Origin: Escherichia coli
Lineage (GTDB): Bacteria; Pseudomonadota; Gammaproteobacteria; Enterobacterales; Enterobacteriaceae
Assembly: GCF_003334815.1 (NCBI RefSeq)
Contig: NZ_QOWO01000004.1
Direction: 5' to 3' (one strand)
DNA length: 64,000 nt
A program made the position numbers. Positions 8,131 to 14,100 of the stretch are shown in pieces. Position 1 is the first letter of the stretch. Each line of letters opens with the position of its first letter.

Positions 8131-11100
8131 TTAAATGTCGAGATAACGATCACAAAAACGACAATGTGAAAATTGTTCGAGGAGTAAAAGGCAAAAAAAA
8201 ACGGCCTCCCGATAGGGAAGCCGTAGCAAAGTGCGCGTGTTTTTATGCCGGATGCGGTGTAAACATACGTGGCAGTGCTATGTAGGCATGATAAGACGCT
8301 TCCGCGTCGCATCAGGCATAGGTTGCCGGATGCAGTGTAAACGCCTTATCCGTCCTACGGGGTGGTGCTGTTCGTATGAGGCGTATCAGGCAATAGTAAT
8401 TTTGCTATCGAGATAAACGTCCTGCACGGCATTAATCAGTTTCACGCCGTCAGCCATCGATTTCTTGAACGCCTTACGTCCAAGAATCAGCCCCATTCCG
8501 CCAGCGCGTTTGTTGATAACCGCAGTACGCACTGCATCGCTGAGGTCAGTTTCACCGCCCGCAGCACCGCCGGAGTTTATCAACCCAGCCCGACCCATAT
8601 AGCAGTTAGCTAACTGATAACGCACCAGATCAATCGGGTTTTCGCTGGTCAATTTGCTGTAAACACGATCGTCGGTGTAACCGTAATTAATTGCTTTATA
8701 GCCGCCGTTATTTTCCGCCATTTTTTGTTTGACGATATCTGCACCGATGGTTGCCGCCAGATGGTTTGCCTGACCGGTCAGGTCGGCGGAAACATGGTAA
8801 TCAACGCCATCTTTCTTAAAGGCGGAGTTACGCAAATAGGCCCACAGCACTGTCACCATACCCAGCTCGTGCGCACGTTCAAAAGCCGCAGAAATTTCTT
8901 CAATCTGGCGACGTGACTCTTCCGAGCCAAAATAGATAGTCGCACCAACCGCAACCGCGCCCATGTTGAACGCCTGCTCCACGCTGGCATACAGCGTTTG
9001 ATCGTAGGTATTCGGGTAACTTAGCGTCTCGTTGTGATTAAGTTTGACGAGGAATGGAATGCGATGCGCATAACGCCGCGATACCGACGCCAGCACGCCG
9101 TAAGTTGACGCCACACAGTTACAGCCCGCTTCGATCGCCAGTTCAACAATGTTTTTCGGGTCAAAGTAGAGCGGGTTAGCAGCAAATGAAGCTCCGGCAG
9201 AGTGCTCAACGCCCTGGTCAACCGGCAGAATAGAAAGATATCCTGTGCCAGCCAGACGCCCGGTGTTGTACAACGTCTGCATATTACGTAACACCGCTGG
9301 CGGGCGATTATTGTCAATCATTACGCGGTCTACGTAGTCATGTCCGGGGAGATAAAGCTGGTCAGAAGGAATTGTCATACAACGGTGCTGTAAAAGGTTG
9401 TCGGCGTCTTTGCCAAGCAACTGCGCAATATCTGTCATTACTATGCTCCCGTAAATTCCGATTGGATATCGGCTATGGATTGTCCTGGCCCGCCTTTTGC
9501 GGGCAATCATAATCCTGGTCGTTACGGGCGAGTTTTTCCATCTTTTGGATGTTTTTTCAGCGTTTTCTGTTGGCTCGATTCATCAGAAAAAATGTTAGCG
9601 CGGTCAAGTTTTCACCGCAAAGGTATTTAAAAGGTATTATTAAGTGGTATTGTCATCGCGTACCTTACATTACCTGTCATGAAGGAATTAAAAGATGAAA
9701 ACAACAGCAAAGCTGTCGTTCATGATGTTTGTTGAATGGTTTATCTGGGGCGCGTGGTTTGTGCCATTGTGGTTGTGGTTAAGTAAAAGCGGTTTTAGTG
9801 CCGGAGAAATTGGCTGGTCGTATGCCTGTACCGCCATTGCGGCGATCCTGTCGCCAATTCTGGTTGGCTCCATCACTGACCGCTTTTTCTCGGCGCAGAA
9901 AGTGCTGGCGGTATTGATGTTCGCAGGCGCGCTGCTGATGTATTTCGCTGCGCAACAGACCACTTTTGCCGGGTTCTTCCCGTTACTGCTGGCCTACTCG
10001 CTAACCTATATGCCGACCATTGCGCTGACTAACAGCATCGCTTTTGCCAACGTGCCGGATGTTGAGCGTGATTTCCCGCGCATTCGTGTGATGGGCACTA
10101 TCGGCTGGATTGCCTCCGGTCTGGCATGTGGTTTCTTGCCGCAAATACTGGGGTATGCCGATATCTCACCGACTAACATCCCGCTGCTGATTACCGCCGG
10201 AAGTTCTGCTCTGCTCGGTGTGTTTGCGTTTTTCCTGCCCGACACGCCACCAAAAAGCACCGGCAAAATGGATATTAAAGTCATGCTCGGCCTGGATGCG
10301 CTGATCCTGCTGCGCGATAAAAACTTCCTCGTCTTTTTCTTCTGTTCATTCCTGTTTGCGATGCCACTGGCGTTCTATTACATCTTTGCCAACGGTTATC
10401 TGACCGAAGTCGGCATGAAAAATGCCACCGGCTGGATGACGCTCGGCCAGTTCTCTGAAATATTCTTTATGCTGGCATTACCGTTTTTCACTAAACGCTT
10501 TGGTATCAAAAAGGTATTATTGCTTGGTCTGGTCACCGCTGCGATCCGCTATGGCTTCTTTATTTACGGTAGTGCGGATGAATATTTCACCTACGCGTTA
10601 CTGTTCCTCGGTATTTTGCTTCACGGCGTAAGTTACGATTTTTACTACGTTACCGCTTACATCTATGTCGATAAAAAAGCCCCCGTGCATATGCGTACCG
10701 CCGCGCAGGGGCTGATCACGCTCTGCTGCCAGGGCTTCGGCAGTTTGCTCGGCTATCGTCTTGGCGGTGTGATGATGGAAAAGATGTTCGCTTATCAGGA
10801 ACCGGTAAACGGACTGACTTTCAACTGGTCCGGGATGTGGACTTTTGGCGCGGTGATGATTGCCATTATCGCCGTGCTGTTCATGATTTTTTTCCGCGAA
10901 TCCGACAACGAAATTACGGCTATCAAGGTCGATGATCGCGATATTGCGTTGACACAAGGGGAAGTTAAATGAAAACAGAACGTATTCTCGGTGCTCTTTA
11001 TGGGCAGGCGTTAGGGGATGCGATGGGGATGCCCTCCGAGCTTTGGCCACGCAGCCGCGTTAAAGCACACTTTGGCTGGATTGACCGTTTTCTGCCTGGA

Positions 11101-14100
11101 CCAAAGGAGAATAACGCGGCCTGTTATTTTAACCGCGCCGAATTCACCGACGATACCTCGATGGCGCTGTGTCTGGCGGATGCGTTGCTGGAACGTAAAG
11201 GCAAGATCGATCCGGATCTGATTGGGCGTAATATCCTCGACTGGGCGCTGCGTTTCGACGCCTTCAACAAAAACGTGCTAGGTCCGACCTCGAAGATTGC
11301 GCTTAACGCCATTCGCGACGGTAAACCCGTTGCTGAACTGGAAAACAACGGCGTAACCAACGGCGCAGCGATGCGCGTCTCGCCATTAGGTTGTTTGCTT
11401 CCGGCGCGCGATGTTGATTCCTTTATTGATGATGTGGCGCTGGCGTCGAGCCCGACCCATAAATCCGATCTGGCAGTTGCAGGTGCGGTAGTCATCGCAT
11501 GGGCGATTTCTCGTGCTATTGACGGAGAAAGCTGGTCAGCGATTGTTGATTCACTGCCTTCAATTGCGCGACATGCCCAGCAAAAACGCACCACCACGTT
11601 CAGCGCCTCACTGGCGGCGCGGCTGGAGATTGCGCTGAAAATTGTGCGCAATGCCGACGGCACCGAATCCGCCAGCGAACAGCTTTACCAGGTCGTTGGC
11701 GCAGGTACCAGCACTATTGAGTCCGTTCCGTGCGCCATTGCGCTGGTTGAACTGGCACAAACCGACCCGAACCGTTGCGCCGTCCTCTGCGCTAACCTTG
11801 GCGGCGATACAGACACCATCGGTGCTATGGCGACGGCAATCTGCGGCGCGTTGCATGGCATTAACGCTATCGATCCTGCGTTAAAGGCGGAGCTGGATGC
11901 GGTAAATCAGCTTGATTTCAACCGCTATGCCACAGCGCTGGCGAAATATCGTCAACAACGGGAGGCGGTATGAGCGGCGCTCGATTACACACGCTGCTGC
12001 CTGAATTAACCACGCGTCAGTCGGTGATGGTCGTCGGCGCGGCGGTCATTGACGTGATCGCCGACGCTTATGCCCTCCCCTGGCGTGGGTGCGATATCGA
12101 ACTGAAACAGCAGAGCGTTAACGTTGGCGGCTGCGCACTGAATATTGCCGTGGCGTTAAAGCGCCTCGGCATCGAAGCGGGTAATGCCTTGCCGCTCGGT
12201 CAGGGGGTATGGGCGGAGATTATTCGCAACCGGATGGCGAAAGAGGGGTTAATCAGCCTGATCGATAACGCCGAAGGCGATAACGGCTGGTGTCTGGCGC
12301 TGGTTGAGCCGGATGGCGAACGCACTTTTATGTCATTCAGCGGTGTGGAAAATCAGTGGAATCGCCAGTGGCTGGCGCGATTAACCGTTGCGCCTGGCAG
12401 CCTGCTCTATTTTTCCGGTTATCAACTGGCCTCGCCCTGCGGCGAATTGTTAGTGGAATGGCTGGAAGAGCTGCAAGACGTGACGCCGTTTATCGATTTT
12501 GGCCCACGTATTGGCGATATCCCGGATGCATTACTGGCGCGGATCATGGCCTGTCGACCTTTAGTGTCGCTCAATCGTCAAGAGGCTGAGATTGCCGCCG
12601 AACGTTTTGCTTTATCCGCAGAGATAACAACACTTGGCGAGCAATGGCAGGAGAAATTTGCCGCGCCGTTGATCGTTCGTCTCGATAAAGAAGGCGCATG
12701 GTATTTCAGCAACGACGCTTCTGGCTGCATTCCGGCATTTCCAACGCAAGTTGTAGACACCATTGGGGCGGGCGACAGTCATGCAGGTGGCGTACTTGCC
12801 GGGCTGGTCTCTGGTCTGCCACTGGCGGATGCCGTATTACTGGGCAATGCAGTGGCGTCGTGGGTTGTCGGGCATCGGGGCGGTGATTGTGCGCCAACGC
12901 GCGAGGAACTACTCCTCGCACACAAAAACGTATAGATCGCTGCGACAGTGGCTAATGCTGTACTCAATAGGCCGTTGCTGTTGGTCAAGCGCCACTTGCT
13001 TGATCACCAGCAACGGTATTTTGCTATCTAACTGAATATGTGACTGAAACTCGGCATCCGGCATCCGGGCGCTAACGCGGGAACGCGTACGTTGTGGGTA
13101 AATGTGCTGGCTGCGGAAATAGTCATAAAGTGAAATCCCGATGGCATCAACATCATGAATTAAATGCGCCGGAACCCACGATTCCTCAATCGATACCGCT
13201 TCTTCATCGACATAGCGAATACGCTTAAGCAAAAAGACATCACTTCCTGCTTCGACCGCCAGCTGCTGCGCGACTTCTTCGGGACATTTCACGACACGCT
13301 TGTTAACCCATAGCGTATCGGGCTTTTTCCCGCGCAATACCACCTGCTGAGAAAAACCTCGCGCTTCTTTCAACGAGTATTCGAAGATGTTGTTGATCTG
13401 CGTGCCGTAACCGCGCGAACGCGTCACCACACCCTCTTCTTCCAGCGCCTGCATCGCCTTGCGCACCGTAATGCGCGAAACGCCGGTTAACTGACTTAAA
13501 TCACGCTCACCGGGCAAAATATTGCCATGCTCCAGCACCCCGCTGCGCACGGCATTTTTTACCGTTTCGGCAAACTTAATATAAAGCGGCGTGTTATCCG
13601 CCGCTAAAATACGCTCGTTCAGTTGGGCAATCAGCTGGGTATGCGCTTGTTCCATTTGTCTTTTTCCTGCCGGGGAGTCTGGTGGGAGTATATCACTGCT
13701 TCTTATTTAAGGCGTTTCTTTAATCCCATCAACGAATGCCTGCAACTCCTCCACCGTGCCATTAAATACATTAAAATCCACCGGACCATTGATGCCATCT
13801 ACCTGTCCACGGTCGGAATGCTGCCAGAAGCGCCAGGCCATGCCGTCATTGTCCGGACGACGTTGATAGTAGTGAGCCACCCACCACGGATATTCATTGA
13901 AATAGCCCGCCAGATTGGTGTGATAAAAAACGGCTCCTGAGTAAATAATCGGCTTTTTTCCCGTACTTTTTTCGACCATTTTTAGCCACTGACTTACTCG
14001 TTTGCGTAATTCTTTTGCCGATAATTTTCCCCGTTCTTCTACGTCCAGTACCGCAGGGAAATCGCCTTGTGAGAAATCCACCGTTTGCAGAAATAATCGT

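Follow-up and report, generated by a model that had tools for sequence, protein, structure and literature searches.

Background

What compound do the products of yegT, yegU, and yegV act on in Escherichia coli? These three genes, together with the convergently transcribed regulator gene yegW, lie at positions 9695-13655 of the 64,000-nucleotide stretch of E. coli DNA that was analysed (the window; NCBI RefSeq assembly GCF_003334815.1, contig NZ_QOWO01000004.1). The locus and its regulation are already known. A reading of the sequence alone had described a unit for the catabolism of nucleosides or ribosyl compounds whose substrate was not firmly established, and the literature that we searched likewise holds no validated assignment for YegT, YegU, or YegV. 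As late as 2025, YegV was listed in print as an uncharacterized sugar kinase. The regulator has already been named (GgaR), with a single proven target and ADP-glucose as its proposed effector, and the published view ties yegTUV to glycogen, not to riboside catabolism.

Here we propose that yegTUV would be a repressor-controlled module for the uptake and the breakdown or salvage of an exogenous, non-canonical ribofuranoside, in which the kinase acts before the hydrolase; we place the probability of this reading slightly above even. Repression, the single target, and the single mRNA were established by others. The motifs, the fusions, and the conservation of gene neighbourhoods come from the present study, and we infer the substrate class, the kinase-first order, the terminator, and a regulatory feedback. 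The new elements are fusions of the two enzymes in both orders, a conserved enzyme pair with swapped transporters, a GGTAT-repeat operator, and a terminator-like hairpin in yegW. There is nothing structurally surprising about the locus, but the evidence assembled makes the question of its substrate more directly testable. As yegTUV-yegW is a conserved 'y-gene' module of the best-studied bacterium, with equivalents in several phyla, identification of the substrate would assign a function to three orphan E. coli proteins, would probably extend the ARH fold to a new kind of catalysis, and would show whether glycogen is affected directly or only as a by-product of overexpression.

Genes of the locus

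The coding features are as follows.

9695..10972, plus strand: yegT, 425 aa, NHS-family proton symporter of the major facilitator superfamily (open reading frame (ORF) table and raw sequence)
10969..11973, plus strand: yegU, 334 aa, predicted ARH-fold (PF03747) metal-dependent ribosyl hydrolase, named to family level
11970..12935, plus strand: yegV, 321 aa, PfkB-family kinase (PF00294 match)
12909..13655, minus strand: yegW (ggaR), 248 aa, repressor of the GntR/HutC subfamily (GntR and UTRA matches)
12909..12935, both strands: convergent coding overlap of yegV and yegW, exactly 27 nt, CTACTCCTCGCACACAAAAACGTATAG

The coordinates, both start/stop overlaps, and the 27-nt convergent overlap given by the sequence-only reading proved exact to the base against the ORF table and the raw sequence. 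Its family assignments were right at the family level, as borne out by matches to TIGR00889 (YegT), PF03747 (YegU), PF00294 (YegV), and GntR plus UTRA (YegW). Positions 9400-13800 are 100% identical to an E. coli chromosome in which RefSeq names the genes yegT, yegU, yegV, yegW, and yegX. The same region was found at a coverage of at least 80% in 5420 of 5426 complete E. coli genomes; it is thus a core locus.

Gene fusions and neighbourhoods

An exhaustive search, made without profiles, of 1.84 billion cluster representatives gave 237 relatives of YegU at E<=1e-30. Among the best 150 YegU-homolog representatives (50% identity clusters), 12 were fusions of a PfkB kinase and an ARH domain, 600-760 aa in length; the kinase forms the N-terminal part of seven of them and the C-terminal part of the other five. 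By the classical Rosetta-stone argument, fusions of this kind suggest that both activities serve one pathway. Two of the fusion genes adjoin an ATP-binding cassette importer of the substrate-binding-protein type or an energy-coupling factor (ECF) transporter, and a GntR/UTRA gene stands beside one. Another relative, a metagenomic protein of 692 aa (P0160), has two tandem ARH domains (residues 7-340 and 354-689).

The neighbourhood scan, with one genome per species, covered 78 YegU-homolog loci from Proteobacteria, Firmicutes, Actinobacteria, and Chloroflexi. A gene for a YegV-like kinase was present within 1.8 kb on the same strand in 64 of the 78 loci, and a GntR/UTRA (HutC) regulator gene was adjacent in 52. 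The transporter was swapped by lineage: an NHS carrier (YegT) in 29 loci of Enterobacterales and Vibrio; an NCS1-family permease in 16 loci, including those of Aeromonas, Bacilli, Lactobacillaceae, Dialister, Parasutterella, and Chloroflexi; and, directly after the YegU-YegV pair in 14 loci of Clostridia, a PnuC-family carrier (TIGR01528, 150 bits against a cutoff of 42). All three families include riboside carriers. Two enzymes that stay together while their importer is exchanged, with a repressor gene close by, point to an uptake-and-processing module for an external small molecule. The idea of a catabolic unit for a ribosyl compound, already put forward in the sequence-only reading, is supported and has been strengthened by the kinase-hydrolase fusions and the conserved neighbourhoods. 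In the literature searched as full text, no paper joins ARH-family proteins with PfkB kinases or with PnuC.

As for the aglycone, no usable neighbour of the YegU homologs would name it. In Enterobacterales, the genes that recur nearby (a class I aldolase gene, phoPQ/purB/hflD, and two further genes, presumably thiD/thiM) reflect synteny only. The PnuC, NCS1, and ECF carriers, together with nadC in one Leuconostoc locus, hint at an aglycone derived from a vitamin or a cofactor.

In that locus of Leuconostoc holzapfelii (L059:7082-7978), the yegU-like, NCS1, and yegV-like genes have immediately upstream of them nadC, the gene for quinolinate phosphoribosyltransferase (277 bits, cutoff 198), and the nadC neighbour family also occurs about 2 kb from a YegU homolog in locus L073. 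With two loci only, the adjacency may possibly hint at pyridine-nucleotide metabolism. In two metagenome-assembled genomes, one of Marinimicrobia (L069:6390-13085) and one of Ignavibacteria (L072:3290-14947), the YegU homolog has no adjacent kinase gene. It is accompanied in the latter by a GntR gene, ECF-type transporter components, and two genes for TonB-dependent receptors; the former likewise has the GntR gene and the TonB-dependent receptors, and one unannotated neighbour family is common to both. The best match of these receptors is the vitamin B12 receptor (BtuB-like), well below the cutoff. These isolated nadC, BtuB-like, and ECF neighbours are too few to build on.

Transporter, kinase, and hydrolase

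YegT passes the nucleoside permease model TIGR00889 with 654.9 bits (cutoff 446.1; 1-418 of 418 covered). It has the GXXXD protonation motif of transmembrane helix 10 (G311-V-S-Y-D315) and the partner residue E255 in transmembrane helix 8 (residues as described in PMC11979927). Its crystal structure superposes on that of NupG at 1.57 A (Xiao et al. 2025, PMC11979927). In the same work, isothermal titration calorimetry (ITC) with uridine, adenosine, cytidine, and guanosine 'did not produce significant results', no further ligand was reported, and the uridine-binding residues of NupG were not conserved in YegT. Because of these ITC results and the lack of conservation of the uridine-binding residues, the ligand is probably not a canonical nucleoside. 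Thus, the earlier 'nucleoside or ribosyl compound' can be divided: the ribosyl compound is supported, whereas the canonical nucleosides are unlikely substrates.

YegV matches PF00294 (PfkB) at 2e-56 over residues 17-309 and has the expected motifs D28, G53-G54, N58, N202-R-Q-E205 (NxxE), and G266-A-G-D269. It lies below every NCBIfam equivalog cutoff. The ribokinase models TIGR02152 and NF008353, the former its top match, give 81.0 and 60.7 bits against cutoffs of 299.65 and 341, and the model for the pseudouridine kinase PsuK (NF007355) gives 21.9 against 540. When YegV is aligned with the ribokinase RbsK, D16 and N46 are kept as D28 and N58, whereas N14, K43, and E143 are replaced by V26, C55, and Ala. 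We take N14 and E143 of RbsK to act at O1 of ribose. In PfkB kinases of this type, the 5'-OH of a furanose is the phosphate acceptor. The YegV residues D28, G53-G54, N58, and D269 are those that hold the furanose 2',3'-diol or face the 5'-OH in PsuK and ribokinase (PMC9247573).

In YegU, the PF03747 match was precomputed for the representative of its 99%-identical cluster. Alignment with human ARH3 pairs E24 with the catalytic E41, and T60-D61-D62 and D280/D282/T283 with the metal ligands T76-D77-D78 and D314/D316/T317; H164 is also conserved. E24 and the metal ligands are kept in nearly all of 24 aligned relatives, one being altered in both metal motifs and a few being without the Glu. The AlphaFold model (predicted local distance difference test score 96.7) has as its nearest solved fold the uncharacterised MJ1187 (template modelling (TM) score 0.82), followed by ARH3 and DraG (0.72-0.78). 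Searches of solved structures by sequence and by fold returned only ARH3, DraG, Tri1-type, Thermus thermophilus, and MJ1187 entries, none with a small-molecule riboside function. The nearest named NCBIfam models are DraG (TIGR02662, 79.7 against 337.05) and Tri1 (NF041672, 68.7 against 490). Since YegU is below all NCBIfam equivalog cutoffs, it can be named to the family level only, and ten diverse YegU-like clusters all carry the source name 'ADP-ribosylglycohydrolase family protein'.

The adenine clamp of ARH3 is absent from YegU: F143 corresponds to N126, S148 falls in a three-residue deletion, and Y149 corresponds to V129. In ARH3, F143L and S148A almost abolish activity (PMC8319183), and adenosine binding varies between ARH classes (PMC7050489). 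The missing clamp argues against an ARH3-like binding mode only.

A ribosyl ligand is suggested because YegT belongs to the NHS family, YegV keeps the residues for the diol and the 5'-OH, and YegU keeps the ARH glutamate and metal motifs; a ligand bound like ADP-ribose in ARH3 is not expected, because F143 and S148 are replaced by Asn and a deletion. Candidate substrates could include alpha-linked or otherwise non-canonical ribosides, such as breakdown products of NAD or ADP-ribose, ribosides of cobamide lower ligands, and pyridine or imidazole ribosides. More tentatively, the YegU clade may be the first group of ARH-fold enzymes whose natural substrates are 5'-phosphates of small-molecule ribosides rather than ADP-ribosylated macromolecules, and may form with a PfkB riboside kinase a widespread, unrecognised 'kinase-then-ARH' salvage route; we regard this as possible but rather less than probable. 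If true, nearly every E. coli and many of the Firmicutes of the gut would have this route.

Proposed order of the reactions

In the scheme that we favour, YegT would import the riboside with a proton. YegV would phosphorylate the 5'-OH of the riboside, by which the compound would be trapped and given the phosphoribosyl handle recognised by ARH-fold enzymes. YegU, with its two-metal centre and Glu24, would then hydrolyse the bond at ribose C1 to yield ribose-5-phosphate and the free aglycone.

Carriers of the PnuC type work by facilitation and need the riboside to be phosphorylated once it is inside (PnuC/NadR), and this requirement in the Clostridia partners is one reason to place the kinase first. 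A second reason is that YegV differs from ribokinase at N14, K43, and E143. Precedents are a third: in E. coli, PsuK acts and then PsuG (PMC9247573), and STM4066, the kinase of an analogous Salmonella operon, phosphorylates a riboside according to the work cited in PMC3161100.

The alternative that survives best is the reverse order. Here YegT would import the riboside, YegU would cleave it to free ribose and the aglycone, and YegV would be a ribokinase that feeds the pentose-phosphate pathway, a logic like that proposed for the rus loci of Bacteroides. Those Bacteroidetes loci do pair ribokinases with nucleoside hydrolases or ADP-ribosylglycohydrolases (bioRxiv 10.1101/574913), the top NCBIfam matches of YegV are ribokinase models, and some of the fused kinase domains score as high as 185 bits on the ribokinase model. 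However, the 81 bits of YegV itself are far from the cutoff, three RbsK residues are replaced as described above, and E. coli already has RbsK (textbook knowledge). The PnuC-family partner in the 14 loci also needs the imported molecule itself to be phosphorylated. The site of attack of ARH enzymes is C1'' of a ribose that has a cis 2'',3''-diol, and all characterised substrates bear a 5''-phosphate on the attacked ribose (PMC7050489). STM4066, a riboside kinase in the source cited by PMC3161100, speaks against this order as well. We therefore consider hydrolase-first cleavage unlikely, although it is the strongest competitor of the kinase-first route.

ADP-glucose and glycogen

The experimental record on the locus comes mainly from Saito et al. 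2024 (PMC10819704), who renamed YegW GgaR. Chromatin immunoprecipitation on arrays (ChIP-chip), gel shift, Northern, and reverse transcription quantitative PCR experiments identified yegTUV as the sole target repressed by GgaR (PMC10819704). The yegTUV mRNA was a single species of 3.3 kb that was undetectable in the wild type and rose about 30-fold when yegW was deleted (PMC10819704). The Northern blots bear out the co-transcription of yegTUV that had been read from the sequence, and we met no evidence against it.

In the model of these authors, yegTUV serves ADP-glucose and glycogen metabolism: GgaR would sense ADP-glucose, and the products would import, cleave, or phosphorylate molecules related to ADP-glucose, which would raise glycogen. 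ADP-glucose at 10-100 uM frees GgaR from its operator in gel shifts, while glucose and ADP do not; the yegW deletion has two to three times more glycogen and a reduced growth rate on glucose minimal medium; the yegTUV mRNA is about 3-fold higher at 1% than at 0.25% glucose; and a yegV deletion is listed among low-glycogen mutants (all PMC10819704). On the other side, the effector panel consisted of these three compounds only, and the 3-fold induction by glucose, compared with the 30-fold of full derepression, suggests that the natural inducer was probably absent. The published work shows no enzymatic link to ADP-glucose, and its authors call the premise 'somewhat ambiguous' (PMC10819704). ARH chemistry takes place at C1'' of ribose, where adenine is the sole substituent in ADP-glucose, yet YegU is without the ARH3 adenine clamp. 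Moreover, the same enzyme pair is coupled elsewhere to carriers of the PnuC, NCS1, and ECF kinds, as would be usual for vitamins and ribosides but not for a dianionic sugar nucleotide, and the changes in glycogen could be side effects of 30-fold overexpression. ADP-glucose may possibly be an analogue of the true inducer, and the glycogen phenotype is likely a consequence of strong yegTUV overexpression. A direct role in ADP-glucose metabolism was therefore considered and ranked low; we find it decidedly improbable, more so than the hydrolase-first route.

Also ranked low, and in our view very improbable, is a protein- or nucleic-acid-de-ADP-ribosylating YegU of the DraG, ARH1, or Tri1 type with the transporter and kinase as merely unrelated neighbours: PF03747 membership, an intact catalytic centre, and DraG and Tri1 as the nearest named models fit it, but the scores fall far below both cutoffs (79.7 against 337; 68.7 against 490), PfkB fusions and a constant association with importers would be unexpected for a protein-repair enzyme, the ARH3 adenine-binding residues are absent, and no ADP-ribosyltransferase partner is among the recurrent neighbour families.

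Candidate operator and promoter

The kinase-first module would be controlled by YegW, which has a GntR winged helix (PF00392, residues 29-87, 7e-16) and a UTRA domain (PF07702, residues 108-242, 6e-36) and thus belongs to the HutC subfamily. It is below every NCBIfam equivalog cutoff, including those of the named regulators PhnF, HutC, and NagR (PhnF TIGR02325, 128.5 against 156.8; HutC, 96 against 220). Published data place a single ChIP-chip peak in the genome, made up of one site in the fbaB/yegT spacer and another, weaker one within yegT; purified GgaR shifts a 190-bp upstream probe and, at a higher amount, also probe-5, which spans nt 571-869 of yegT (PMC10819704). That study gives neither a motif nor a footprint. 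The following elements were found.

9611..9640, plus strand: promoter-like site of yegTUV from a consensus scan, -35 TTCACC (9611-9616), 18-nt spacer, -10 TATTAT (9635-9640)
9619..9664, plus strand: candidate primary GgaR operator (O1), three direct GGTATT repeats (9622-9627, 9633-9638, 9646-9651) and an inverted GTACC (9660-9664)
10502..10539, plus strand: candidate secondary operator copy (O2), 38 nt, 79% identical to 9622-9659, a direct repeat within yegT

The repeats of O1 overlap the candidate -10, and O1 falls within the 190-bp probe shifted by GgaR (PMC10819704). In 21 loci representing more than 10 genera, the pattern AAAGGTATTTaAAAGGTATTAtt.a.TGGTAt-N-GTACC is kept at a fixed distance before the yegT start (51-69 nt upstream), with variable flanks. 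The 20-nt core occurs in the window only at O1 and O2, against 0.03 occurrences expected. O2 corresponds to nt 808-845 of yegT and lies inside the GgaR-bound probe-5, where the second ChIP peak maps (PMC10819704). Thus, O1 and O2 match the two fragments bound by GgaR. O2 is conserved in some lineages only (retained in Escherichia, Citrobacter, Kluyvera, Pluralibacter, and Vibrio; lost in Enterobacter, Cedecea, and Mangrovibacter), and we claim no wider conservation.

We propose, from these sequence patterns, the GGTAT-repeat operator as a new candidate recognition site of GgaR. YegW/GgaR would keep yegTUV near-silent through the tandem repeats over the promoter and the weaker copy in yegT, and an inducer would release it from the operator. 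An intermediate of the pathway is more likely to be the physiological inducer than is ADP-glucose, which is active in vitro.

The 3' end of yegTUV

Because yegV and yegW overlap, yegTUV has no intergenic terminator. A simple terminator scan gave no more hits than in shuffled sequences and nothing after yegV. A hairpin in yegW was spotted by reading the sequence and was then tested by RNA folding and by counting of pairs.

12971..13025, plus strand: terminator-like hairpin of yegTUV, 20-bp interrupted stem (12971-13017) and then AUUUUGCU, within the yegW coding sequence, 36 nt past the yegV stop

A 111-nt RNA with this hairpin folds at -44 kcal/mol (z = -5.5), and none of 200 shuffles folds as well. 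Across 21 enterobacterial sequences, 91% of the cells are paired, compared with 21-58% in slid controls, and four pairs are altered on both sides; the covariation score was reached by 3 of 500 shuffles. With its ends near 9647 and 13025, the predicted transcript would measure about 3.4 kb, against the Northern band of 3.3 kb. The hairpin at 12971-13025 may thus be where the yegTUV transcript terminates.

At position 13013 of the 3' arm, the present sequence has A (CAGCAACGG), which makes a perfect U-A pair; this is C in the E. coli sequence L001 and in E. albertii (L002), a mismatch with the U of the 5' arm, while Enterobacter and others have a G-C pair. In Providencia vermicola (L033:9981-10014), yegV and yegW do not overlap, and the 32-nt gap holds an ordinary hairpin, AAAGAGAAAGA...TCTTTCTCTTT, between T and A runs. 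It looks like a bidirectional terminator that takes the place of the hairpin embedded in yegW. A further terminator-like hairpin at 13585-13605, on the minus strand (yegW sense) in the 5' part of the yegW coding sequence, has a 7-bp stem with six G-C pairs followed by TTATATTAAG; it may be due to chance, as the scan overall was no richer than shuffles.

Since the coding sequences share 27 nt, the mRNAs of yegV and yegW must overlap, and ExcludonFinder lists yegV-yegW as an excludon from RNA-seq coverage (PMC12288877). The predicted 3' end of yegTUV lies about 115 nt inside the convergent yegW; thus, induced transcription would be antisense to the last 115 nt or so of yegW. Such antisense transcription could reduce repressor synthesis, and the resulting positive feedback could sharpen induction.

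Gene junctions and flanking genes

The yegT/yegU (10969-10972) and yegU/yegV (11970-11973) junctions are ATGA start/stop overlaps, with Shine-Dalgarno-like runs inside the upstream genes (AAGGGGAAG before the yegU ATG and GGGAGG before the yegV ATG). As the four-base ATGA overlap is the commonest gene junction in bacterial operons, these junctions are ordinary in themselves. In about 20 loci from at least 10 enterobacterial genera, the 4-nt overlaps are kept in 17 (yegT/yegU) and 16 (yegU/yegV), and the 27-nt yegV/yegW overlap, in which the stop codons are TAG at 12933-12935 for yegV and TAG at 12909-12911 (minus strand) for yegW, is kept in 20. Synonymous-site conservation in yegT is highest at codons 412-424 (10932-10972; 0.82 against a gene mean of 0.54 in 21 enterobacterial sequences). 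These last 13 codons coincide with the ribosome-binding site and start of yegU, and their conservation would fit translational coupling.

An ATG at 9679, within the conserved TGTCATGAAGGA that also contains the yegT Shine-Dalgarno sequence, starts an 18-codon frame (9679-9735) that, in E. coli, is not the reading frame of yegT. Its counterpart in Citrobacter, Kluyvera, Pectobacterium, and others lies 15 nt upstream in frame and adds MKDLK to YegT. The region is probably just the yegT ribosome-binding region, and the true yegT start in those and similar genera is ambiguous.

Upstream, an ORF at 8386-9510 is divergent from yegT and is named fbaB in PMC10819704. On the other side, yegX (glycoside hydrolase family 25 in RefSeq) lies 51 nt upstream of yegW on the same strand, and yegW may be co-transcribed with it; the flanking ORFs extend over 13707-16175. 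Two of the minus-strand ORFs, 14590..15390 and 15387..16175, overlap by 4 nt and are presumably thiD and thiM.

Evidence on the other side

Several points weigh against the kinase-first riboside module as proposed. The putative ligand is assigned wholly from family membership and gene context. The PnuC and NCS1 carriers are identified at the family level only. The top sub-threshold match of YegV, ribokinase, would also fit the hydrolase-first route. Characterised ARH enzymes prefer alpha-1'' linkages (PMC7050489), in contrast to the beta linkage of ordinary nucleosides and nicotinamide riboside; it is a possibility that the substrate is an alpha-riboside or that the YegU subfamily differs in stereochemistry. 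The glycogen rise and slow growth of the yegW deletion and the release of GgaR by ADP-glucose are unexplained except as side effects of overexpression. On the regulatory side, O2 has no excess of synonymous-site conservation (rank 79-369 of 401 yegT windows), and the covariation support for the hairpin in yegW is modest and confounded by the coding sequence.

Comparison with known systems

Among the transporters, YegT resembles the NHS symporters NupG and XapB in the family model that it passes, in the GXXXD motif of transmembrane helix 10, and in its superposition on NupG. It differs from NupG in having about 27% identity, in the uridine-binding residues, and in the ITC results with the four nucleosides (PMC11979927). 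YegU shares with ARH3, ARH1, DraG, Tri1, and MJ1187 the fold (TM scores of 0.72-0.82 to MJ1187, ARH3, and DraG), the metal-ligand motifs, and the Glu-flap glutamate. It is set apart from ARH3, ARH1, DraG, and Tri1 by its sub-cutoff scores, by the missing ARH3 adenine clamp, and by a context of importer and kinase instead of an ADP-ribosyltransferase.

The rus loci of Bacteroidetes bring together genes for ribokinases, a permease, and a regulator with a varying set of ribosyl-cleaving enzymes, among them ADP-ribosylglycohydrolases, and suggest scavenging of diverse ribose-containing nutrients in the gut (bioRxiv 10.1101/574913). Unlike yegTUV, they are polysaccharide utilization loci of the SusC/D type, are induced by free ribose, encode bona fide ribokinases, and are without an NHS transporter or a GntR/UTRA repressor.

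STM4065-STM4066-STM4067 of Salmonella enterica likewise combines a permease, a PfkB kinase, and an ARH-family hydrolase; a mutant in the hydrolase gene STM4067 is attenuated for persistence in the pig intestine (PMC3161100). STM4066 phosphorylates aminoimidazole riboside, according to Dougherty & Downs 2003 as cited in PMC3161100. However, the operon is a separate locus, and STM4066 (PDB 1TYY) is distant from YegV (E = 1.6e-4, 24 bits), so that the relation is one of analogy, not orthology.

In PsuK/PsuG of E. coli (yeiC/yeiN), a PfkB kinase phosphorylates a non-canonical riboside at the 5' position and a glycosidase then frees ribose-5-phosphate and the base; YegV retains the Asp, Gly, and Asn with which PsuK binds ribose, as well as its catalytic Asp (PMC9247573). 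YegV nevertheless reaches 21.9 bits against the PsuK cutoff of 540, and YegU has a two-metal ARH fold and is not of the PsuG family. The transporter gene psuT/yeiM presumably adjoins psuK/psuG.

Finally, uptake of nicotinamide riboside by PnuC and NadR offers an analogy for the trapping by carrier and kinase that would be implied in the 14 YegU-YegV-PnuC loci of Clostridia, where the kinase is of the PfkB type and not NadR, and where a hydrolase follows, so that the route would be degradative or aglycone-releasing. Whereas the Clostridia loci have PnuC beside the enzyme pair, E. coli has an NHS carrier at yegTUV and a separate pnuC.

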